Sequence record: MN850637.1
Length of the DNA stretch: 64,000 nucleotides
Strand: one strand, 5' to 3'
Source of the DNA: Escherichia phage warpig
The notes beneath the pieces were generated by a model. The model saw only the letters and a program-made list of their open reading frames with translations. It was not told the DNA's origin and made no database searches. Each line of letters begins with the position of its first letter. The stretch's first letter is position 1. The position numbers and the translations under genes were made by a program. Positions 13,585 to 23,052 of the stretch are shown here, piece by piece.

Positions 13585-14370
13585 ATGGGTATTGTAAAAA
13601 TCATCAATGGGGATATCTTCTCCGCATTTGATAAAGGTAAGTTTGATATTATTGGTCACGGTTGCAACTGTATGAACTTAATGGGTGCAGGTATCGCTGA
13701 CAAGATTTCTAAACTTTACCCAAAAGCATATGAGACCGATACAGAAGTTTATTTGTATGCAGGTGGCATAGGCCACAAACCCTGTGAAAATTTACTAGGT
13801 AATTTCTCTGTAGCACGTTTAAAACAAGGCCGTATAGCTAACCTTTACACTCAGCTTAAGACTGGTAAAGATGCCCGATACAGTGCTTTAGAGTCATCTT
13901 TGAAACAGCTTAACAGATACTGTGAAGTCAATCAGTTGAAGAAAGTCGGGTTACCTATGATTGGTGCAGGTATCGGTGGGCTAGACGCTCAAGCCGTCAC
14001 AGTTATCATTAATCAGGTGATGAAGAGTGTAGATGTGTATCTGTATGTCTATGAAGGAGAGATGTACCACAAGTTACGCTCAGGTTGGAAGAACTACTGT
14101 GAACCAGAATACTTTGCAGGTGTAGTAACGTTCACAGACAATACAGTTACCCTCTTCAGACGAAGAAAAGGTAAGATACATCAAAGTAACCCTCCGGTTG
14201 AAAAGATGTCTCTAAGTAACGCTCTAGTTACCCACCTGTCGAAGAGCAATCACAGGATTGCAGTAACATTTGGTAGTGATGCAGACACTTATATCTATGC
14301 AAGAACTGATGAGGGTATCGAGACAGTTTTCTCTTCGCCAGAAGTTACCTTCTTAGACGCAAAGAACTAA
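13585..14370 (+). CDS. macro-domain protein (ADP-ribose-binding/hydrolase fold) with extra C-terminal domain
   Basis: 261 aa; macro motifs GDIFSAFDKGKFDIIGHGCNCMNLMGAGIA and LPMIGAGIGGL. Confidence 0.65.
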   Translation: MGIVKIINGDIFSAFDKGKFDIIGHGCNCMNLMGAGIADKISKLYPKAYETDTEVYLYAGGIGHKPCENLLGNFSVARLKQGRIANLYTQLKTGKDARYSALESSLKQLNRYCEVNQLKKVGLPMIGAGIGGLDAQAVTVIINQVMKSVDVYLYVYEGEMYHKLRSGWKNYCEPEYFAGVVTFTDNTVTLFRRRKGKIHQSNPPVEKMSLSNALVTHLSKSNHRIAVTFGSDADTYIYARTDEGIETVFSSPEVTFLDAKN

Positions 14371-14440
14371 GAAACTCTGTAGAGTATTCACAATAAACTA
14401 AGCCTTTCTTATCTGGTAAATTTTTCAGGTAAGGAGGGCT

Positions 14441-14640
14441 TTTTCATTTCAGAATTGTGCAGGTATATTTCTATAGAGAAATCTGTAGAGGAAATTTTGA
14501 ACTCCAAAGAGAAAATTCATTTTCAAACTGTGCAGGTAATCTCCAAAGGGTTTTTTCATTTTCAAAACGTGCAGAGAAAAATCAGGTCGGGCAAGAAAAA
14601 TCATTTTAGAATTGTGCAGGTAGGTGGGTGCAGGTGGGGA
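14441..14640 (+). repeat. 4-5 degenerate direct repeats of TTTTCAtTTCAgAAtTGTGCAGGTA-like units
   Basis: Read directly: copies near 14441, 14514, 14553, 14596 and a GTGCAGGT(G)G tail. Confidence 0.5.
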
Positions 14641-14800
14641 TGTCGCCATTTCTCACAAGGCTACCACATCTGGAAATAAAAGTCAACAGAAAAATTTGTA
14701 GCGGATTGAAAAATAATTCTTGATTGTAGTTCTGTTTTGTGGTATTCGCGCGCACCCGTTTCATTACAATTTTTGCAAAAAAATATTTTTAAAATTCCTA

Positions 14801-14879
14801 TTGACTCTTTGAGTATGGTTATCTAATATTTGCATCAGACGGGCAAGCAAGCCCACTTCCTAAACTGGAGAATCTAAAA
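14801..14879 (+). promoter_or_regulatory. sigma70-like promoter TTGACT-N17-TAATAT plus conserved leader CTAAACTGGAGAATCTAAAAATG
   Basis: -35 at 14801-14806, -10 at 14824-14829; leader shared with downstream small genes. Confidence 0.5.
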
Positions 14880-15086
14880 ATGCTTTACAGTCGTGAATTG
14901 ATGGTTACAACTAACGTTAACACAAAGGTAAAACGTTTTTACATGCAAATTTGTGGCGTATGGTCTAGAATATCAGAAGCTGACTATTGCAACTATGTAG
15001 AAACGGCTATAAACTCTAATTGCTACCTTACAAGAAATACAAGAAAGTACATAAGACAGACAGCAATTTACTACTACGATAAATAA
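14880..15086 (+). CDS. small early-region protein (hypothetical)
   Basis: 68 aa; ATG preceded by conserved leader with GGAG. Confidence 0.45.
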   Translation: MLYSRELMVTTNVNTKVKRFYMQICGVWSRISEADYCNYVETAINSNCYLTRNTRKYIRQTAIYYYDK

Positions 15087-15091
15087 AGTAC

Positions 15092-15173
15092 TTTACAAGG
15101 GGCTTATAGTTCGATAGAGTAAGCCCCAGATAAAGAGCTTTGCTAACTAACCTTAAACTAGGAGAATCTGAAA
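15092..15173 (+). promoter_or_regulatory. class-1 cassette: TTTACA-N17-TAGAGT with GGGGCTTA/TAAGCCCC palindrome in spacer, then conserved leader
   Basis: palindrome 15099-15127; leader ends CTAGGAGAATCTGAAAATG. Confidence 0.4.
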
Positions 15174-15554
15174 ATGGCATATCGTGCACCTAAATTCATC
15201 AACAAAGACAACTTTCGCAACGCACTGGAGAAGTCACTTGATGAAAAATTTAACGGTAAATTGATTATTGTTCACGCATTCAATTTTAAGTATGATATTA
15301 ATGGGAATAAAATCAACCATTACACGGCAACCATGATAGATGGTACACTTTCAAGTGAAAAAGCCGTACTGAATGCACTTGCTGGACGCGGTAAAAACCT
15401 GATAAAATGTGATAAGCGACGTTATCAGGGTGGCGCATATGGTTACGATGATGCTGTTTACCATCTTGAAAACATGGGCTATCAAGTAGAAAAAGCTGGA
15501 GTATCACAAATTATCGGGAGTGATGGTTATGTGACAATTTTCAAAATTAACTAA
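15174..15554 (+). CDS. small early-region protein (hypothetical)
   Basis: 126 aa ORF behind class-1 cassette. Confidence 0.5.
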   Translation: MAYRAPKFINKDNFRNALEKSLDEKFNGKLIIVHAFNFKYDINGNKINHYTATMIDGTLSSEKAVLNALAGRGKNLIKCDKRRYQGGAYGYDDAVYHLENMGYQVEKAGVSQIIGSDGYVTIFKIN

Positions 15555-15562
15555 TAAAGTAC

Positions 15563-15643
15563 TTTACAAGGGGCTTATAGTTCGATAGAGTAAGCCCCAG
15601 ATAAAGAGCTTTACCACTAAATCCTAAATTGGAGAACTTAAAA
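15563..15643 (+). promoter_or_regulatory. class-1 cassette (near-identical copy)
   Basis: same palindrome (15570-15598) and leader. Confidence 0.4.
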
Positions 15644-15901
15644 ATGGCTATTATCAAAAACGTTGTAATTACTGCAAAGACTCGTGATGACGCTCGCGTT
15701 ATGGCTAAAAAGTTATGCGGAAAAGTGGTTGACAACGGAAAACAAACTGCTGTAAGGTGGGGCGTGAAAGCTGATAAGCAACTAACCTTAAAACATAATT
15801 CAAACAACCTTTTTAAAGGTGTAAAATCACTCGGTAAAGTGAACGTTTTTACCAAAAAAGGCTATAAAATGCACTTATCACTAACTGGCAATTTAATCTG
15901 A
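15644..15901 (+). CDS. small early-region protein (hypothetical, basic)
   Basis: ATG at 15644 after GGAGAACTTAAAA; track ORF 15629 begins at an in-frame TTG. Confidence 0.45.
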   Translation: MAIIKNVVITAKTRDDARVMAKKLCGKVVDNGKQTAVRWGVKADKQLTLKHNSNNLFKGVKSLGKVNVFTKKGYKMHLSLTGNLI

Positions 15902-15909
15902 TAAAGTAC

Positions 15910-15996
15910 TTTACAAGGGGCTTAAAAGTTGATATCTTAAGCCCCAGATAAAGAGCTTTACCACTAAATCAAGTCCTTAAACTAGGAGATTCAAAA
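15910..15996 (+). promoter_or_regulatory. class-1 cassette (variant palindrome GGGGCTTAA/TTAAGCCCC)
   Basis: palindrome 15917-15945; conserved leader. Confidence 0.4.
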
Positions 15997-16509
15997 ATGA
16001 AAACTGTAGACGCTACCTTTGAAGTTGTAAAAGAAAAATTTTCCATCGTTTATGAGGCTGTTAATTGCTATGAAGCAAGTCATAATCTTGATAATTGGAA
16101 GTTTACAGATGACCATCAAGGCGGTGTGACTGTTAAAAATCCTAACTGTCAGCGTAATGATTTTAAATATGCAATCCCTTTACATTACAGCCTTAAGCAG
16201 CTTTCAAGTGACTATGCAAAACAAGGCCGTGAGAATCCATCGAAAGAGGCTTACACGAGCTTACAGAAAGAACTAGAAAGAGATTTAGAGGCTTCAGAGT
16301 ATAACCTTGCCGCGAAAGTTGTGGATGCAAACGGTAGCACGGTTTTAGAAAGTTTTTATCTTGGTTACGCTTTCGATTGGTGCTATCGTGACGGCGATGA
16401 TTTAGATGACAGGCTAAAAGAGGAAGTGAACAACGCAGACGCAGAATCTGAAGTATTAGAACGCTTGGAAGCATTAAAAGATTCAGTGATGAATATCTTT
16501 AAGGACTAA
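15997..16509 (+). CDS. small acidic early-region protein (hypothetical)
   Basis: 170 aa; conserved leader upstream. Confidence 0.5.
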   Translation: MKTVDATFEVVKEKFSIVYEAVNCYEASHNLDNWKFTDDHQGGVTVKNPNCQRNDFKYAIPLHYSLKQLSSDYAKQGRENPSKEAYTSLQKELERDLEASEYNLAAKVVDANGSTVLESFYLGYAFDWCYRDGDDLDDRLKEEVNNADAESEVLERLEALKDSVMNIFKD

Positions 16510-16518
16510 ATAGACCTC

Positions 16519-16600
16519 TTTACACGGGGCTAACAAGCTGATATGATAGCCCCAGATAAAGAGATTTATCAAATTAACCCTTAAACTAGGAGATTCAAAA
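16519..16600 (+). promoter_or_regulatory. class-1 cassette (variant palindrome GGGGCTA/TAGCCCC)
   Basis: palindrome 16526-16553; conserved leader. Confidence 0.4.
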
Positions 16601-16897
16601 ATGAAATTATCAAATAAAGTCCGTGAAAATTTAAGCAAGTTACTCAACAAAATTGATTTTATCGAGACATCAAGGAATAGTCATGATGTTATGGAATGGT
16701 TGCACGGCAAAATAAAAGGCCGTCGCGTAGTGATTTGCTTATGGAATAGTTGCAGGGAGTATAAAAAACCTGTATTGCAAGTAAATATTTATGACGATAC
16801 TTTTAAAAGTCCAGTAAAATCTAAAAGTGACTTACTAGATTCTTATGAGATAACTGTAAATGGCAAAGTATCACGTAAAGAGGAAACACCATGTTAA
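16601..16897 (+). CDS. small early-region protein (hypothetical)
   Basis: 98 aa. Confidence 0.45.
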   Translation: MKLSNKVRENLSKLLNKIDFIETSRNSHDVMEWLHGKIKGRRVVICLWNSCREYKKPVLQVNIYDDTFKSPVKSKSDLLDSYEITVNGKVSRKEETPC

Positions 16898-17223
16898 TGA
16901 CTGGCATCACTGCAATCATTGCCATTTTCGCGCTATATAAGGCATATAAAGCCTATAATCTAGCAAATAAGGCAATCACACAGCAGGTTAGCAATAACCT
17001 TGTAGAAAGCTTTCTAGGGCGCCTCAGTGATGAGCAAATAAAGCGGCTAGAGATGAGCTTCAGATATAAAGCGAAAACCTATCAGATAAGTGACATCTTC
17101 AAAGATGATTTTCAGTTAGTCGATGATTATAATTCACTGATAAATGCTTTAAATATCAGTGATTTGAAAGACTATTACGCTGTAATTGTTCAAGAATTGA
17201 GCAAACGAAAACAAAGTGTTTGA
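16891..17223 (+). CDS. small membrane protein (hypothetical)
   Basis: 110 aa; N-terminal TM ITAIIAIFALY; overlaps upstream stop. Confidence 0.4.
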   Translation: MLMTGITAIIAIFALYKAYKAYNLANKAITQQVSNNLVESFLGRLSDEQIKRLEMSFRYKAKTYQISDIFKDDFQLVDDYNSLINALNISDLKDYYAVIVQELSKRKQSV

Positions 17224-17312
17224 CACTGGTTTTCAGATAGATTAAATTACACATCAACGGGGCGGGAATGACCTTCCCCACTAAATAAAGTCCTAAACTG
17301 GAGATTCTGAAA
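17220..17312 (+). promoter_or_regulatory. class-2 cassette: TTGACA-N17-TAAATT, 5'-UTR hairpin GGGGCGGGAATGACCTTCCCC, conserved leader
   Basis: -35 17220-17225, -10 17243-17248. Confidence 0.5.
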
Positions 17313-17585
17313 ATGTATACTACTAACAACGGTCGTACTCTAAATGTAACTTTGCGCCACTATGTGAACGGTGTAATGCACTTCGAGGATTTACAAGCCG
17401 AACAACATATCTTAGATTGGCAAGTTGCAGGACTCCAAAAAACTGCTACAGGATACGGGAAAAAGATTCCAACCAGTTGGAAAGTATACTACGAAGGCCG
17501 TTTGCGCAGAATTTATCAGGATGTGCAAAGCAATAGCGCATCGAGTTACATCATAGTAAAAGGTAAAAAGCTGAATTTAGTATAA
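17313..17585 (+). CDS. small early-region protein (hypothetical)
   Basis: 90 aa. Confidence 0.45.
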   Translation: MYTTNNGRTLNVTLRHYVNGVMHFEDLQAEQHILDWQVAGLQKTATGYGKKIPTSWKVYYEGRLRRIYQDVQSNSASSYIIVKGKKLNLV

Positions 17586-17588
17586 AGT

Positions 17589-17671
17589 ACTTTACAAGGG
17601 GCTTATAGTTCGATAAAGTAAGCCCCAGATAAAGAGCTTTACCACTAAATCCTAAATTGGAGAACTTAAAA
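17589..17671 (+). promoter_or_regulatory. class-1 cassette
   Basis: palindrome 17596-17624; conserved leader. Confidence 0.4.
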
Positions 17672-18076
17672 ATGGCTATTAATAATCGCGAGTTATCAAT
17701 CTTAAAAGCACGTTTGACCGTTAACCGGATTAATGTTATTACGTCATCAGCACCGGACGAAACATTGCACAACATTATTGGGAAGATTCAAAGCGTTATC
17801 TTAGACGTTGAAAACGTAAAAAACTCATTGGCTGACGTTGCAGCAGGTATCACGCTAGACGGTGCACAATATGAAATGACCGACATGTTAGGCAAATCTA
17901 AGGTAATGAATAAAGAGCTTGATTTGAAAATGTTTCGATTTGCTGTTAAAGTGTGGCTATCTGTCGAGTATGACGCTAATTTTGCAATCGCTGACTTTTT
18001 CGCAACATGGTTGCAACGTAACTTAACAAATCACGATTTTCGTAATATCTGTGATGCAATTTACGCAGAACTATAA
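17672..18076 (+). CDS. small early-region protein (hypothetical)
   Basis: ATG at 17672 (MAINNRELS...); track ORF starts at upstream TTG. Confidence 0.45.
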   Translation: MAINNRELSILKARLTVNRINVITSSAPDETLHNIIGKIQSVILDVENVKNSLADVAAGITLDGAQYEMTDMLGKSKVMNKELDLKMFRFAVKVWLSVEYDANFAIADFFATWLQRNLTNHDFRNICDAIYAEL

Positions 18077-18085
18077 AAATTTTTG

Positions 18086-18177
18086 TTGACACTGGTTTTC
18101 AGATAGATTAAATTACACATCAACGGGGCGGGAATGACCTTCCCCACTAAATAAAGTCCTAAACTGGAGATTCAAAA
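18086..18177 (+). promoter_or_regulatory. class-2 cassette (identical promoter and hairpin to 17220)
   Basis: -35 18086-18091, -10 18109-18114. Confidence 0.5.
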
Positions 18178-18381
18178 ATGGCTATTATCAACGGTTTAAC
18201 CATTGAAACTACACACATCAAAGATATTAAAGTTGGTGATGTAGTCCTTTCCCACGGCGTAGAGAAAACTGTTACTGCAAAGGATATTAAAGAGGATTCT
18301 TTCATGGGTAGGACTCTCTTCGGTGATTCTTATTGCTTAGGTTATCTTGCAGTTTTAAAAGTTGTCAAAAATAACCGATAA
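18178..18381 (+). CDS. small early-region protein (hypothetical)
   Basis: 67 aa. Confidence 0.4.
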   Translation: MAIINGLTIETTHIKDIKVGDVVLSHGVEKTVTAKDIKEDSFMGRTLFGDSYCLGYLAVLKVVKNNR

Positions 18382-18386
18382 AGTAC

Positions 18387-18467
18387 TTTACAAGGGGCTT
18401 AAAAGTTGATATCTTAAGCCCCAGATAAAGAGCTTTACCACTAAATCCTAAACTGGAGATTCAAAAA
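18387..18467 (+). promoter_or_regulatory. class-1 cassette
   Basis: palindrome 18394-18422; conserved leader. Confidence 0.4.
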
Positions 18468-19010
18468 ATGAAATGCTTTCACGGTACTACTCAAGAAAAC
18501 TTTATCAACCTGATTAATAATGGTGATAAGCCATCAGGTGCATGGAATTGTTCGGATATGGATGGCAATTTTTACGTATACCCAGAAAATAAAATCTATG
18601 GTGACGATGAGGAAGAGATAGTATCCGAAGGTATTCAACAGGCGTTAGGAAATGCCACTATCACGGCAGCTTTCCAGATGAAAACCCAAAACATTGTTAT
18701 CTTGGAACTTGATATTCCAGAGGACGAATTAAATGATGATTATTCTTGTGATAATATGTCTGGCGTAGCAAGTTTTACAGAATACTTCGATTTAAATTGG
18801 ATTAAAAAGGTTTACGTAACCGAGTTTAATGCGATGTTTTCGCCTTTTTGTCTTCCTTCATTGGATAACCCAAATTTAAACTATCTTGATGAGTCTCTGG
18901 AGCTTCTTGCTAAAAGCGTTCAACAGTCGGACAGTATTCAGGTTTTTTGTGACATCATGGATACACTGGCAGGAAACATCGCAGAAGAGGATTTAAAGAG
19001 CTTTTTTTAA
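18468..19010 (+). CDS. small acidic early-region protein (hypothetical)
   Basis: 180 aa; followed by hairpin AGCCCCTTGTAGGGGCT. Confidence 0.5.
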   Translation: MKCFHGTTQENFINLINNGDKPSGAWNCSDMDGNFYVYPENKIYGDDEEEIVSEGIQQALGNATITAAFQMKTQNIVILELDIPEDELNDDYSCDNMSGVASFTEYFDLNWIKKVYVTEFNAMFSPFCLPSLDNPNLNYLDESLELLAKSVQQSDSIQVFCDIMDTLAGNIAEEDLKSFF

Positions 19011-19076
19011 AAACCTATGCAATCACCTTATAAACACTAATCAGCCCCTTGTAGGGGCTTTTAGGGGGCTTAAATC

Positions 19077-19310
19077 ATGCTTACAACCGTTTACCTCATC
19101 CTTTCCATCTGTAATGGTCATTCATGCGATTTTAAAGGGCTTGAAGAGTTTACAGGAAGTAAAGAAAATGCTATTCAAGTTTGCCAGATAGCACGGCAAG
19201 ACTATCCCGCAAGTGATGATATACAATGCTACTTTAAGACAGAAGATAAAGACGGCATCTATTTTGACAGCGTTGACGGTCAATATGAAATTATCATTGA
19301 AAAAGACTAG
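19077..19310 (+). CDS. small early-region protein (hypothetical)
   Basis: 77 aa. Confidence 0.4.
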   Translation: MLTTVYLILSICNGHSCDFKGLEEFTGSKENAIQVCQIARQDYPASDDIQCYFKTEDKDGIYFDSVDGQYEIIIEKD

Positions 19311-19400
19311 ACAAGCCTGATAAAAGTCTGTAAATTGTCAATCAACGGGGAGGGAATGACCTTCCCCACTAAATGAAGTCCTAAACTGGAGATTCTAAAA
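19308..19400 (+). promoter_or_regulatory. class-2 cassette (TAGACA-N17-TAAATT, UTR hairpin, conserved leader)
   Basis: -10 19331-19336; hairpin GGGGAGGGAATGACCTTCCCC. Confidence 0.45.
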
Positions 19401-19742
19401 ATGGCTTATGTAACCGTAATTACCGATAAAGCTGGCGCATCTTGGTCAACTCAGGTTAGTGATAAGATGTCGCCTATGCAGTGCCTAAAATACTTTGAAC
19501 AGTGGAACAAAGGCGAGGACACAAGCCCCTTTCACGTAATGCAGATTATTCATGTAGACAATGAAGGGAAGAAAACAACTCTGAATAGTGAGTACTACGC
19601 AAGCCGTTTTGAAACGAGAAGTAAAGCAATGAAGCTCTTACGTGAGGCCGGATATGGTCACATTGCCGCGATAATCTGGGATGACCTTCTAAAAAGTCAA
19701 CGTATCAGCTATGTAAAGCCTGAAAAAATATTTATCAGTTAA
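19401..19742 (+). CDS. small early-region protein (hypothetical)
   Basis: 113 aa. Confidence 0.45.
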   Translation: MAYVTVITDKAGASWSTQVSDKMSPMQCLKYFEQWNKGEDTSPFHVMQIIHVDNEGKKTTLNSEYYASRFETRSKAMKLLREAGYGHIAAIIWDDLLKSQRISYVKPEKIFIS

Positions 19743-19871
19743 TCAATAACTTACAAAAAACTTTTAAAAAAGTGTTGACAATACCCCTTGACATTGGTAA
19801 CTTTGTTCGAGGGGGTTTATCTAAAAGGGATTAACTTAAAAGATTCTTTATAGATAAACTTAAAAAATTGC

Positions 19872-19962
19872 TTGCAATCAGCTATCAAAACAAGTAAATT
19901 ACTAATCAACGGGAGGGATGACCTCCCCACTAAGTAAAGTCCTTAAACTAGGAGATTCAAAA
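19872..19962 (+). promoter_or_regulatory. class-2 cassette (TTGCAA-N17-TAAATT, UTR hairpin GGGAGGGATGACCTCCCC, leader)
   Basis: -35 19872-19877, -10 19895-19900; extra TTGACA boxes at 19775-19793. Confidence 0.45.
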
Positions 19963-20493
19963 ATGAACAAGTTCAAAGCCATCAATTACATCCGCTCAAA
20001 TAGTGTTATGTCAAAGCCTGTTAAAGACACCTATGAATTCCGTTGTAATGGTGTACACTTTGCAACCATCACCAAATCAGAAAACGGGGCTTATTACATT
20101 CATCGCCGTAATGTTGCAACCGTTGTAGTCTCTCATTTTATGCAAGCTGTAGCAGAGTTATTACCGCTATTCTTAGAGATTTACTTAGATGAGTGTAAAA
20201 ACGTTCACAACCACGTTAAAAACCTTTTAAACAGTTATAAAATGGCTTATGAACGTTCTATCAAGTCCTTAAACAAGTTTTACAACGCACCTGAAAATAC
20301 TGTGTCAATAGCCTATGCTGCAAATGGTGGGATGGTAAACTTATCCAATGTGGAAGAAATCGAACTGCATGACTTACGCCCTGAAGGTTATTCTAAAACC
20401 CTCGGTGAAGGTTTATCATTCAATATCAAGAACTTAGAAAAAACTTTAAAAGATATTGAAAAAGATATTGACGAGACAATCAAAAATCTGTAA
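19963..20493 (+). CDS. early-region protein (hypothetical)
   Basis: ATG at 19963 (MNKFKAINYIRS...); track ORF 19918 starts inside the leader hairpin. Confidence 0.45.
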   Translation: MNKFKAINYIRSNSVMSKPVKDTYEFRCNGVHFATITKSENGAYYIHRRNVATVVVSHFMQAVAELLPLFLEIYLDECKNVHNHVKNLLNSYKMAYERSIKSLNKFYNAPENTVSIAYAANGGMVNLSNVEEIELHDLRPEGYSKTLGEGLSFNIKNLEKTLKDIEKDIDETIKNL

Positions 20494-20558
20494 ATTACTA
20501 ATCAACGGGAGGGATGACCTCCCTACTAAATAAAGTCCTTAAACTAGGAGACTCTAAA
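20468..20558 (+). promoter_or_regulatory. class-2 cassette (TTGACG-N17-TAAATT overlapping upstream stop codon)
   Basis: -35 20468-20473, -10 20491-20496. Confidence 0.45.
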
Positions 20559-20807
20559 ATGGCAACTATCCGCGCAACTGTTAACGAATTTGGCTTCTAC
20601 TCTCTGGATGTTAAATTCGACCTTGTAGGTACTGATAACGCCTTTGAAATGGTGAAAGTTCTTATCAGTCAGACCATCAAAGACTATAATCCTTCAGATG
20701 AGTTCTGGAAAGAAACAAAACAGGAAGTTCTCAAAGAGGGCTATTCATATCACTATTGGGGTGAAAAAATCGTCTCCCTGTACTACGACAAAGAAGGCAC
20801 TAACTAA
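20559..20807 (+). CDS. small early-region protein (hypothetical)
   Basis: ATG at 20559 (MATIRATVNEFG...). Confidence 0.45.
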   Translation: MATIRATVNEFGFYSLDVKFDLVGTDNAFEMVKVLISQTIKDYNPSDEFWKETKQEVLKEGYSYHYWGEKIVSLYYDKEGTN

Positions 20808-20845
20808 TCGACGCAACGGGGCTAAATAGCCCCAGATACCTTTAC

Positions 20846-20873
20846 AGCCCCTTTCCCATAGGGGCTTTTTTAC
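20846..20873 (+). terminator. Rho-independent terminator closing the + strand early block
   Basis: AGCCCCT-TTCCCAT-AGGGGCT followed by TTTTTT. Confidence 0.6.
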
Positions 20874-21289
20874 GTCTTATCAAATCCCTTATACAACCCT
20901 TTCCCTTTCCTTTCCAGAATCTTATCAGACCTTAAAAAGCAATAACTCTATAGTCTACTCTATAGCCTTTTATCAAATCAACTTAAATATAAGCCCATAA
21001 CCCGAAAGGGAAGGGCAACCGTTTAAACGCTCTATAAAGCTCTATAACAGCCTTATCAACCTAACTTAAGGGATTGCATTAACTCACCCTAAAAAGCCCT
21101 TTATAAAGCTTCCCAGAGACTTAAAAGAATCTTATAAGGGTGTAAGCTTTATCATCTCGTTAGCTATCTTGTGAACTACTAAACAAGCCCCTTGATAGTA
21201 ACTGAAAAGTATGTTATAGGGGCTTTAAAGTTACTTTGAAGTAGCTTAAAAGTTACGTAAATGCTAGCCCCCTTAACAATTTCTTAACA

Positions 21290-22300
21290 AACCCTACATA
21301 GTTATGCTTTTAAGGTACTTGTTAGCAACTTGTTAGCACCTTGTTAAATCTCTGTTAAGACCACGTAAAAGCCTTGTAAGAGTCTTTGACATAGCCTTTA
21401 AAGCCCCTGTAAAGCCCTATAAAGAGCTATCTGTACAGTTGGGCTGTAGTTACTAGGAAGAGACTTAAAAGGGGCTATACAGAGCTATACAGAGCTTTTA
21501 AGAGGTATGTTTAAAGAATCACTAAGAAAGGAAAGGGAACGATAAGAAAAAGAGTAGTGACCATGTTAATAGCTTGTTAAAAAGATTAAACACTTGTTAG
21601 AAACTTGTTAATTATCTTAACAAAATAACTCTTAAAAATTAACTTGTTAGCTCTTGTTAGTCATCTGTTAAGATTCTGTAAAGCCTATTCAGCACTTGTT
21701 AATTGGTATTGTTACCAATCCCTAGAAAACTGTTACAGCCTTGTTAGTTCTGTTAAGAATCTGTTAAGACCTCTGAAGTGTTGTTAAGAAGATGTGAGAA
21801 CTGTTAAGAGATTGTTAAGGATATTTTAAAATTTTGCAAAGTACTTGTAAGGGAGCTGTTAAGGGCTACCAAGCAGATATACATCCTCTACAGATATTTT
21901 TGAGTTCCTTCAAAGACCCTAAAAAATGACTTGATAGTCCTATTTTATAAAAATTTTAAAAATCTGAATAATTACCTATACAGTCTTTTAAAAATACAGG
22001 TAGAAACAGGCTTATAAGATACCTTGTTAGTACCATGTTAGACCTTGTGAGATAAGGTCTGTAAAGATATTCCTGTTAAGTTTGTTAAAACAGTCTATAT
22101 AGAGGCTTAGTAATACCTAGTGAACACCTATAGAGAGTCACATAGTTAACCTAGAGATTAAGAGGTGTATAGGAGCTTCTAAGAAGGTGTAGAGAGATGG
22201 TTAAGGTGATTGTATAGACTGTTAAGAAGGCTTGTTAGAGGACTTGTTAGAAGGGTTATACAGAGGGGCTATTAAGACCACTAGATAGTTACTAAGATAC
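21290..22300. repeat. iteron field: about 30 copies of the octamer YTGTTAR(G) plus TATAGAG/TATACAG repeats in an ORF-free region
   Basis: Read directly; examples CTTGTTAG at 21309/21321, CTGTTAAG at 21694/21770/21782, TTGTTAAG at 21802/21832; no ORF >=60 aa on either strand in 20808-22458. Confidence 0.6.
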
Positions 22301-22420
22301 TATATAGTACTATATAACTATATAGAGAGTAAGATTAAGAAGGTTGTTAAGAAGAATAGATATTTTGTTCACATATGATGGTGACCCAGAGGTTGGGACA
22401 ACCGATAAAATTTTATAAAA

Positions 22421-22452
22421 ATTAAAAAGCCCCCGATTAAGGAGGCTCTTAA
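22421..22452 (-). terminator. Rho-independent terminator for the - strand block
   Basis: On the - strand: AGCCTCC-TTAAT-CGGGGGCT then T-rich run. Confidence 0.5.
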
Positions 22453-22458
22453 GATATT

Positions 22459-23052
22459 TTAAATCAGTGTTTCCAGAACTGTTTTTAGGGATGACTTAGT
22501 TGTCTGATAAAAATGAGTGAATCTATTGTTGTTATCGAATATCTGCATCATGATAGCATCCCCCTTGATTGGATACACTCGGATATCATAGTGAAACCCG
22601 TTAAAGACAGCAGAACCATTACAGAACACACTAAAATCATCCACTGAGATATACTCTTCATGACCTGTGATTTTTATACAGACACCCTTACTCGGTCTCT
22701 TAGGGTTGATGTCTTCCATCACAGACATATTCTGTCCACCAAGAGATACCATAGTGACCACTTTACGGTTCTTCTGTTTAAAGTACATTTTAACTTTCTG
22801 CAAAGTATCTTCATAGAACGGATAAGACTTCTCTACAAAGATTCCTTCAAGTGGCTCTTTACCATTTTCAACTTCTCTGTTATGCCGTACTGCAAAGATA
22901 ATTTGTTCGAACCAGTCAAGATTTTCTTCGGAGAGTGCTTCTCGAACATCGTTCCAGTCAAGTACTAGGTAGTTACCTTCAACTTCTTTTAAGTTATCTT
23001 TTTCCATAGCTATCACACCATTATCGTAAAACTTGGTAGGCTGGTACTGCAA
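22459..23052 (-). CDS. hypothetical protein
   Basis: 197 aa ORF. Confidence 0.5.
   Translation of the reverse strand: MQYQPTKFYDNGVIAMEKDNLKEVEGNYLVLDWNDVREALSEENLDWFEQIIFAVRHNREVENGKEPLEGIFVEKSYPFYEDTLQKVKMYFKQKNRKVVTMVSLGGQNMSVMEDINPKRPSKGVCIKITGHEEYISVDDFSVFCNGSAVFNGFHYDIRVYPIKGDAIMMQIFDNNNRFTHFYQTTKSSLKTVLETLI

Follow-up and report, generated by a model that had tools for sequence, protein, structure and literature searches.

An array of small genes behind repeated cassettes

The DNA described here (the window) is a 64,000-nucleotide (nt) stretch of Escherichia phage warpig (MN850637.1), representing 64 of the ~87 kb of the genome. Between positions 14880 and 20807, it carries 14 plus-strand open reading frames (ORFs) of 67–180 amino acids (aa), in agreement with an original prediction, made from the letters of the window, of 14 small genes at 14.8–20.8 kb. 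Most of these ORFs lie behind similar intergenic cassettes that combine promoter-like elements, a hairpin, and a leader with a Shine-Dalgarno (SD) sequence. We consider it likely that the array is a hyperplastic region of early accessory genes, and that its cassettes, which are of the type described in T4-like phages as PeSLs (promoter-early stem-loops), double as recombination joints. With 94% identity to Escherichia phage JohannRWettstein (Bas63), the 6.2-kb stretch that holds the array falls in the genus Felixounavirus. It matches 255 records, and nearly all are from Felix O1-like myoviruses whose hosts are Escherichia, Salmonella, Shigella, or Citrobacter. The array is the counterpart of ORF15–23 of Felix O1, every one of which is annotated as hypothetical.

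The most uniform part of the cassettes is the leader, TAAAYT(R)GGAGA. There are 12 copies in the window, all on the plus strand between 14861 and 20551 and each 8–9 nt ahead of an ATG, with zero copies elsewhere. The common leader that had been predicted ahead of the genes is thus a feature of the array only. A GGAG-type SD precedes 12 of the 14 array genes, as against ~20 of the 90 other putative genes in the window (~22%). The further claim that every gene has a cassette is correct for 12 of the 14, the exceptions being ORFs 16891 and 19077 (ORFs are named here by their start positions). A direct-repeat analysis recovered a unit of 100 nt five times and one of 93 nt three times, at 70–100% identity, plus shorter common blocks; over lengths of 93–100 nt, copies share 77–100% identity, far above chance.

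Two promoter classes share this leader. Class 1 comprises six cassettes, ahead of the ATGs at 15174, 15644, 15997, 16601, 17672, and 18468, with the layout TTTACA-N17-TAnnnT and the hairpin GGGGCT(T)A-N-T(A)AGCCCC, followed by AGATAAAGAGCTTTACCACTAAAT and the leader. Class 2 comprises five, ahead of the ATGs at 17313, 18178, 19401, 19963, and 20559; here, the −35 hexamer, a 17-nt spacer, and TAAATT are followed by 10 nt, a hairpin formed by a G-run and a C-run, ACTAAAT, and the leader. Two classes had been predicted, and both are present, but the first cassette (14801–14882) is a unique third type with TTGACT-17-TAATAT and a GGGC...GCCC hairpin. Likewise, the canonical TTGACA attributed to class 2 occurs in two copies, the other −35 hexamers of the class being TAGACA, TTGCAA, and TTGACG.

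The repeats have been noticed before in Felix O1-like phages, yet they have remained unexplained. The Felix O1 paper lists the cassette sequences merely as 57- and 39-bp direct repeats, omits them from its promoter list, calls temporal regulation unknown, and does not link the repeats to gene shuffling (PMC3185647). The 57-bp repeat (CTTTACATGGGGCTTAAAAG...CCCCAGATAAAGAGCTTTACCACT) corresponds to class 1 and the 39-bp repeat (TTGACACTGGTTTTTAGATAGATTAAATTACACATCAAC) to class 2. The wV8 record EU877232 annotates the same sequences as DR_1–DR_9, and a 26-bp version of the repeat was described in the Mordin genome paper, which compared it with the start-associated sequences (SASs) of mycobacteriophages (PMC4611695). 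A literature search found no paper that connects PeSLs with Felix O1-like phages; a comparative Felixounavirus paper and two papers on defence do not cover the region.

Gene exchange at the cassettes

The homologous region was compared among 17 phages (13 of Felixounavirus, 2 of Mooglevirus, an Erwinia phage, and its Salmonella relative PMBT37). ORFs were called and clustered, gene order was tabulated for the 17 relatives, and junctions were placed by the boundaries of BLAST blocks. The window and these 17 loci together supplied 198 cassettes; the median intergenic length (177 cassettes) is 88 nt for class 1 and 91 nt for class 2. BLAST matches to the cassettes in the phage collection are restricted to the Ounavirinae.

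Gains and losses of genes coincide with the cassettes. For the 14 indel events identified, ~21 of 23 endpoints fall inside cassettes, which make up 18.3% of the array (binomial P~6e-14). The units 14880, 15174, 15644, 15997, 16601, 18178–19077, 19963, and 20559 are each missing in some phage. For example, the junction 14882|15154 joins leader to leader in five phages, Felix O1 has junctions 15176|15903 and 18183|19341 with overlaps of 89 and 67 nt, 16002|16518 is found in wV8, and 19965|20490 in OPT-SAL01; further junctions are 15178|15556, 15646|15903, and 20509|20814. The overlaps at junctions range from 7 to 93 nt and may lie anywhere in the cassette, covering the leader only, the hairpin, or the whole cassette. 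Insertions map to 14843–14882, 17283–17316, 18378–18471, 19379–19401, and 20490–20562. The additional ORFs found behind cassettes in relatives belong to families x1, x5, x6, x7, x8, x19, x20, and x28. In seven relatives, cassette 12 is duplicated and family x1 (87 aa) lies between the copies; x5 is located ahead of 14880 in ASO1A and GEP101 and after 19077 in Mordin. Altogether, the 18 genomes hold at least 22 ORF families.

Exchange is also visible where gene order is unchanged. ORFs 15174 and 19401 and families x6 and x7 switch between class-1 and class-2 cassettes from phage to phage. Other ORFs are replaced by divergent alleles while their neighbors remain >90% identical: ORF 18468 has 53%–54% aa identity in AYO145A and mio, ORF 20559 has 57%–62% in six relatives, and ORF 15644 has 59%–63% in wV8, ASO1A, and humlepung. 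These swaps are delimited by cassettes. In the case of ORF 18468, nucleotide identity drops ~10 nt past the ATG and returns at the next intergenic hairpin. The cassettes themselves are homogenized within genomes, a case of concerted evolution: hairpin variant v5 occupies several positions in most Felixounaviruses and variant v34 four to five positions in Mooglevirus, while the variant at a single position differs even between close relatives. The expectation that ORFs would be found to swap while cassettes stay is borne out by the indels, the allele swaps, the class switching, and the movement of x5. Comparative genomics shows gene exchange whose apparent breakpoints are the cassettes.

Promoter elements

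Sequence conservation within the cassettes points to promoters. A consensus scan scores 11 of the 12 cassettes as sigma-70-like, all with 17-bp spacers; the twelfth is TTGCAA-17-TAAATT. Class-1 conservation and covariation were both assessed by aligning 59 distinct copies, drawn from 18 phages. No variation occurs in the −35 hexamer or in T1 and A2 of the −10 element, and almost none in T6, while −10 positions 3–5 take more than 10 forms among these copies (among them TAAAGT, TATCTT, TATGAT, TAGAGT, TAAGAT, TAGGAT, TACAGT, and TAGTAT). The TAnnnT rule holds in class 2 as well, and the 17-bp spacing is conserved exactly in both classes. Could the hairpins explain this pattern? The loop neighbors of T1 and A2 vary freely, such that structure does not account for the invariance of these two bases and promoter function does. 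In class 2, the −35 and −10 elements lie outside any structure, and the class-2 promoters are also annotated, independently, in the GenBank records AYO145A and ASO1A. Based on the conservation of the −35, the 17-bp spacer, and TAnnnT, we infer that the cassettes are sigma-70 promoters.

The Felix O1 paper provides some expression data, with the homologues ORF16, 20, 21, and 22 reaching their maximum at 5 min in reverse transcription-PCR (RT-PCR) (PMC3185647). A MotA-box-like reading of the cassettes, in which GCTTTA would be the box and the TAAACT of the leader the −10 element, was dropped because the transcript would begin past the SD. Factors of the MotA/AsiA type are not reported in the Felix O1 paper (PMC3185647).

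Hairpins

The two classes place their hairpins differently with respect to the predicted transcription start. In class 2, the stem-loop begins 10 nt past the −10 element, and the predicted start is ~3–4 nt 5′ of it; therefore, the hairpin would be the 5′-terminal stem-loop of the gene's own mRNA. In class 1, the palindrome was thought to lie inside the promoter spacer. This is incorrect: the spacer contains only the 5′ arm, and the 3′ arm runs from the last T of the −10 element through the discriminator to about +1. The predicted class-1 start is directly 3′ of the hairpin, which would therefore be present only in read-through RNA from the upstream gene. Flanking sequences (TAAAGT-a-CTTTA / TAAAG-a-GCTTTA) extend the class-1 hairpin to an interrupted helix of ~20 bp, with a predicted energy of −26 to −28 kcal/mol. 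The hairpins themselves have energies of −9.5 to −13.7 kcal/mol as RNA and roughly half that as DNA.

The hairpins probably act as RNA. In the class-1 alignment, 97% of cells are paired, compared with 32%–57% in slid controls. At two pairs, there is a compensatory change from G-C to U-A, one of them in the seven Erwinia-type copies and the other in nine 16601-type copies, and a third pair shows a compensatory change from U-A to A-U. G·U pairs are frequent in class-1 stems, where the opposite strand would carry A·C mismatches, which favors structure in the sense-strand RNA over a DNA cruciform. The AAAGnnCTTT palindromes may instead be operators for a repressor, but their bases are accounted for by the extended RNA helix with its compensatory changes. 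A search of 14000–22600 against Rfam (E<=1) returned zero families.

Intrinsic termination was considered as a function of the hairpins and rejected, because there is no T-tract; AGATAAAG or ACTAAAT comes next. The GenBank record of ASO1A labels the cassette hairpins as terminators. A terminator scan called zero of the cassette hairpins, and its plus-strand calls are only those at 14400–14441 and 20846–20866. The position of the class-2 hairpin leads us to infer a role as a 5′ stabilizer. For class 1, which lacks a U-tract and so is not a canonical terminator, there is about an even chance that the hairpin serves upstream transcripts, either as an element for 3′-end protection or processing (RNase III-like) or as an attenuator.

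Units along the array

All features in this section are on the plus strand. An intrinsic terminator upstream of the array (14400–14441; 17-bp stem and T-run) is the homologue of t13 of Felix O1 (PMC3185647). Cassette 1, the unique type, has TTGACT at 14801 and TAATAT at 14824, an AT-rich, UP-like tract upstream, the hairpin GGGCAAGCAAGCCC at 14841–14854, and the leader TAAACTGGAGA at 14861. The ATG at 14880 opens a 68-aa ORF (14880–15086; isoelectric point [pI] 9.3) that is homologous to Felix O1 ORF15 and missing in 5 of the 17 relatives. Cassette 2 (15084–15176, class 1) has TTTACA at 15092, a −10 of TAGAGT, a hairpin at 15099–15127, and its leader at 15154. The 126-aa ORF that it serves (15174–15554) is missing in Felix O1 and ASO1A and lies behind a class-2 cassette in AYO145A, wV8, FGS030, JK55, and humlepung. 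Cassette 3 (15555–15646, class 1; −35 at 15563, −10 TAGAGT, hairpin 15570–15598) is 99% identical to cassette 7 and precedes an 85-aa ORF of pI 10.5 (15644–15901) that is missing in Felix O1, GEP101, and SP2. Cassette 4 (15902–15999, class 1) has its −35 at 15910, an extended −10 (TGaTATCTT), and a hairpin at 15917–15945, and is followed by an acidic 170-aa ORF (15997–16509) that corresponds to Felix O1 ORF16 and is missing in wV8.

Cassette 5 (16511–16603) is a class-1 variant, with TTTACA at 16519, 17 bp, and TATGAT with a TG. Its stem is the 7-bp GGGGCTA/TAGCCCC at 16526–16553, and its outer stem has compensatory changes. The 98-aa ORF behind it (16601–16897) is missing in GEP101 and SP2. 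The next ORF (16891–17223, 110 aa) has no cassette; its start overlaps the upstream stop (ATGTTAATG), and it is therefore likely to be translationally coupled. Cassette 6 (17220–17315, class 2) begins with TTGACA at 17220, followed after 17 bp by TAAATT, and has a predicted +1 near 17255/6, a hairpin in the 5′ untranslated region at 17259–17279, ACTAAAT, and the leader at 17294. It precedes a 90-aa ORF (17313–17585) with homologues in unrelated phages. Cassette 7 (17583–17674, class 1) has its −35 at 17591, TAAAGT as −10, and a hairpin at 17598–17626; in read-through RNA, the predicted fold is a 20-bp interrupted helix of −28 kcal/mol. Behind it lies the 134-aa homologue of Felix O1 ORF20 (17672–18076). 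Cassette 8 (18086–18180, class 2; TTGACA-17-TAAATT, hairpin 18125–18145) is 98% identical to cassette 6. Its 67-aa ORF (18178–18381) is replaced by the unrelated x6 in Mooglevirus, and in Felix O1 it is deleted along with the two ORFs that follow.

Cassette 9 (18379–18470, class 1) has its −35 at 18387, TGaTATCTT, and a hairpin at 18394–18422, and serves a 180-aa ORF of pI 4.05 (18468–19010) with a predicted ADP-ribosyltransferase fold. A GC hairpin with a weak T-tail (AGCCCCTTGTAGGGGCT, 19043–19059) forms the right-hand boundary of the allele swap at this ORF. The second ORF without a cassette (19077–19310, 77 aa, acidic) has a separate hairpin upstream and its own SD, GGGGG. Cassette 10 (19308–19403, class 2; TAGACA-17-TAAATT, hairpin 19347–19367) precedes the 113-aa homologue of Felix O1 ORF21 (19401–19742); in wV8, Mordin, and Sf13, the cassette of this ORF is of class 1. 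At 19775–19815, the promoter-like sequence TTGACA-17-TAACTT, in which a CCCC...GGGG(G) hairpin is embedded, stands as an orphan. It is preceded by AAAAAGTG, as in the PeSLs of RB49, and has no ORF behind it in the window; Mooglevirus relatives have a 46-aa ORF (x8) in this place. The site may thus have been left behind by a cassette gene that was lost, or a small RNA may start here.

The last two cassettes belong to subclass 2b. Cassette 11 (19872–19965) has TTGCAA-17-TAAATT, the hairpin GGGAGGGATGACCTCCCC at 19911–19928, and the leader TAAACTAGGAGA; its 176-aa ORF (19963–20493), the homologue of Felix O1 ORF22, is missing in OPT-SAL01. Cassette 12 (20468–20561; TTGACG-17-TAAATT, hairpin 20502–20518) overlaps the end of that ORF and precedes an acidic 82-aa ORF (20559–20807) that is missing in GEP101 and SP2. 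Just before the closing terminator is a cassette remnant, CAACGGGGCTAAATAGCCCCAGATA (20813–20840), which looks like a chimera in which a class-2 start (CAACGGGG) is joined to a class-1 end (AGCCCCAGATA). In GEP101 and SP2, the deletion 20509|20814 has this remnant as its right-hand junction. The terminator that closes the array (20846–20866), identified in the terminator scan, is t23 of Felix O1 (PMC3185647).

Cargo genes

What do the cassettes express? The absence of recognizable domains that had been noted for the 14 ORFs persists in profile searches: there are zero Pfam domains, and all PHROG matches are of "unknown function." Neither five cargo ORFs nor a profile of the 18468 family, when searched against PDB sequences, had a credible match. 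Four ORFs are acidic (pI 4.05–4.7), in line with an earlier remark that several are strongly acidic; most of the others are basic. ORF 15997 yields a confident AlphaFold model with no fold match. ORF 17313 has homologues in ~150-kb phages of Cronobacter, Enterobacter, and Klebsiella and in Rhodococcus phages, and ORF 18468 has homologues in Pseudomonas phages of the Pakpunavirus type and in Vibrio phages. Judged by these matches, the cargo appears to be spread more widely than the cassettes.

ORF 18468–19010 probably has an ADP-ribosyltransferase fold, whose NAD-binding core is a split beta-sheet, an assignment made at the level of the fold and with moderate confidence. Across 25 homologues, there is little or no variation at H5 (FHGT), Y36/Y38, and E80, all of which are located in predicted strands; these residues are candidates for the catalytic triad of the superfamily (H-Y-E or R-S-E), assigned by eye, not by superposition. 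The ORF has no Pfam or PDB sequence match. Host-directed phage functions include ADP-ribosyltransferases, such as Alt, ModA, and ModB of T4, and the predicted fold fits a role in host takeover. The proposal that the array houses host-takeover genes thus gains one case, which is modelled. Directly upstream of the array, at 13585–14370, is a gene for a macro-domain protein ("phosphatase" / ADP-ribose-binding). This protein and ORF 18468 could form a writer/eraser pair, or the macro-domain protein could act in anti-defence.

Possible mechanisms

Taken together, these features suggest how the array may work. Each ~90-bp cassette would supply a host sigma-70 promoter, a GC-clamped RNA stem-loop, and an A-rich leader with a GGAG SD 8 nt before the ATG, such that any small ORF placed behind it would be transcribed and translated immediately after infection. 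Stem-loops at the 5′ terminus protect mRNAs from RNase E, and the 5′-terminal stem-loop of class 2 presumably shields its mRNA in the same way. As long direct repeats, the 12 near-identical cassettes are also substrates for homologous recombination, both within a phage genome and between co-infecting phages. Such recombination, as comparative genomics shows, deletes, inserts, duplicates, reorders, and allele-swaps units of cassette plus ORF, and homogenizes the cassettes. The cargo would consist of accessory genes for interaction with the host.

Several observations weigh against this interpretation. Only one end of the deletion 16511|16878 coincides with a cassette. The compensatory changes in the class-1 stem are few and lineage-bound, one lineage each, and are supportive rather than proof; moreover, the class-1 arms overlap promoter elements, and selection on the promoter could account for part of their conservation. 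The literature search found no Felixounavirus transcriptome. In the Felix O1 RT-PCR data, ORF17, 19, and 23, which are also cassette-borne, fall in a later group (PMC3185647), so that published support for the predicted early expression is partial. An nhmmer profile of 12 RB49 PeSLs gave no significant match to the cassettes (best E 0.05–0.11), and the two sets of sequences are alike only in the surroundings of the −35 and in their GGAGA(A/T)TCAAAAATG end. Sequence homology was therefore set aside in favor of analogy: the kinship with PeSLs is architectural, and common descent is not claimed.

Other explanations start from individual parts of the cassette. The leader (ACTAAAT...CCTAAACTGGAGATTCAAAAATG) might be the site of a dedicated post-transcriptional regulator, either a RegB-like endoribonuclease acting at GGAG or a translational repressor or activator; array genes would then be shut off or boosted in a coordinated manner, with cassette recombination as a by-product. 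The T4 endoribonuclease RegB cleaves GGAG in the SDs of early mRNAs. The enrichment of GGAG among array genes and the presence of one leader in both promoter classes agree with such a regulator, as does the comparison of the 26-bp repeat with SASs by the Mordin authors (PMC4611695). However, the leader is specific to a lineage: in Erwinia-type relatives, only the class-1 promoter/hairpin/AGATAAAGAGCTTT core is retained, next to a different leader with AAGGA as SD, and therefore the promoter/hairpin core is the older constrained part. Furthermore, RB49 PeSLs end in nearly the same GGAGAATCAAAAATG, which fits a generic optimal initiation region equally well, and no candidate regulator of the leader turned up, although a search for RegB was not made. 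A regulator is unlikely, and it is not needed to explain the conservation of the leader, because recombinational homogenization and selection for good translation initiation suffice. A very unlikely alternative is that the array is a single early operon transcribed from the strong promoter at 14801, with the cassettes acting as RNA-processing or stability hairpins and ribosome sites rather than promoters. It would explain why canonical terminators occur only at the ends of the array, and it draws on the resemblance of the ~20-bp interrupted class-1 helix to RNase III substrates and on the G·U pairs that indicate structure in the sense-strand RNA. These arguments leave the (near-)invariant T1, A2, and T6 of the −10 element unexplained, even though T1 and A2 sit in a variable loop, as well as the invariant −35, the spacing of exactly 17 bp, and the class-2 elements outside the structure, and the RB49 equivalents are strong promoters in lacZ fusions. 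Promoter and RNA-processing roles are, in any case, compatible and not exclusive.

The units of cassette plus ORF could also be mobile gene cassettes, with the hairpin, as folded single-stranded DNA or as duplex, being recognized by a site-specific recombinase or nuclease of phage or host origin in an integron-attC-like or homing-like manner. The hairpins keep their structure more than their sequence, the array position of family x5 varies between genomes, and the PeSL authors raised this idea for GGGG...CCCC stems and detected excised mini-circles (PMC2839356). Yet the junction overlaps, at 7–93 nt, reveal no fixed site, as homologous exchange predicts; the G·U pairs favor RNA over DNA structure; no integrase, nuclease, or recombinase domain was found in the 14 array ORFs and the two upstream flanking ORFs, the only ones scanned; and the cassettes are limited to one array and one phage subfamily. 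Site-specific mobility is extremely unlikely on this evidence. A broader and quite unlikely scenario adds two elements to the PeSL-type interpretation. The class-1 helix and the leader would be recognized by factors (RNase III plus a phage RegB-like nuclease or repressor) that switch off or process the whole regulon, and the GGAGAATCAAAAATG end, nearly identical to that of RB49-type PeSLs, would allow Ounavirinae and Straboviridae, which are unrelated coliphage families, to trade ready-to-express ORF cassettes. If true, accessory and anti-defence genes would have in the cassettes a "standard connector" that works across phage families during co-infection.

Flanking regions and functional implications

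The array is flanked by two other unusual stretches. Between the upstream terminator and the first array promoter (14435–14622) there are three to four copies of a 23–28-nt repeat (TTCATTTYMRAAYTGTGCAGGTA) that is unique in the window. GenBank records conflict on small ORFs here, on either strand, and the stretch is therefore probably non-coding; its repeats could be an array of binding sites for a regulatory protein. On the other side, ~1.55 kb without a credible ORF (20900–22450) separates the array from convergent minus-strand genes. It is dense in short motifs of the CTTGTTAG / CTGTTAAG type, often ~10–11 bp apart, and has many inverted repeats. It is kept in relatives as the gap between ORF23 and ORF24, and several GenBank records have been opened within its equivalent. 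This stretch may be a genome terminus, a packaging region, or an origin. The RB49-PeSL profile also matches promoter-like sites (an AT-rich tract plus GTTGACA) at ~29500, ~30050, and ~32555, outside the array and around a switch between minus and plus strands; these matches are weak (E 0.04–0.14).

What are the implications of PeSL-type cassettes in these phages? PeSL-type shuffling would no longer be confined to T4-like phages: it would take in the Felix O1 group, which is in wide use for typing of Salmonella and E. coli, biocontrol, and therapy. The cassettes would also explain repeats that have been catalogued for ~15 years without interpretation. The array would be a 6-kb slot for exchangeable, immediately expressed host-interaction genes, and hence a sensible place to hunt for host-takeover and anti-defence functions. 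It may also be useful for annotation and for biotechnology, where Bas63 and other Felixounaviruses could be engineered to carry cargo at this natural, standardized landing pad.

Comparison with known systems

PeSLs were described in 2010 in RB49 and phi1 (Arbiol et al., PMC2839356) and were extended in 2014 (Comeau et al., PMC4122927); PST/T4 and nt-1/KVP40 also have them. A PeSL consists of a sigma-70 promoter, a GGGG...CCCC stem-loop, and an SD, located ahead of ORFans in hyperplastic regions (PMC2839356). In RB49 and phi1, promoter and attenuator activity have been measured, recombination-derived mini-circles have been found, and modular shuffling has been proposed; in lacZ fusions, the RB49 cassettes are strong promoters (PMC2839356). 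The likeness to the array is extensive. Both are ~100-bp intergenic units with an AT-rich tract, −35 and −10 elements, a stem-loop, and an SD plus ATG. The PeSL stem-loop lies between −35 and −10, overlaps the −10, or is found just downstream, and both classes of the array fit this range. Both are present in many copies clustered before small ORFans (dozens in PeSL phages), have G·T pairs in their stems, and contain the indel and replacement junctions of close relatives. RB49 intergenic regions, read directly, have the same layout and a 3′ end, (T)AGGAGAATCAAAAATG, that is nearly identical to the array leader. By analogy, then, the array is a PeSL-type design, now in Ounavirinae, and is not conceptually new. 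There are also differences. The array belongs to Ounavirinae rather than Straboviridae, has 12 copies in a single 6-kb array rather than ~50 over several regions, and has two sharp classes with a common long leader. Its class-1 stem reaches ~20 bp, taking in the −35 hexamer and the +1 region. The activities of PeSLs have been measured, and those of the Felixounavirus cassettes are predicted.

Parts of the design recur in other phages. The SASs and ESASs of cluster K mycobacteriophages are short conserved motifs that contain a ribosome binding site and lie immediately ahead of the start codons of some genes. The leader resembles them in pattern only. Unlike an SAS, the array leader is the 3′ end of a larger unit of promoter and hairpin, and it coincides with recombination junctions. 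T7 early genes are separated by RNase III processing hairpins, which, like the class-1 hairpins, are intergenic, interrupted RNA helices of ~20 bp in an early polycistronic region. The T7 sites, however, are not known to be fused to promoters or to be repeated recombination joints, as the cassettes appear to be on sequence evidence. The class-2 hairpins resemble 5′-stabilizing stem-loops of the ompA type, in that they lie ≤3–4 nt from the predicted 5′ end. Lastly, small accessory genes with their own expression signals are also found in morons, in the terminal-redundancy module of SPO1, and in the early ORFan clusters of T4, all of which are associated with early expression and host-directed functions. 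Morons come with an unrelated promoter and terminator of their own and were presumably acquired by illegitimate recombination. In contrast, the cassettes of the array are standardized and mutually homologous, and would serve both as expression signals and as sites of exchange.

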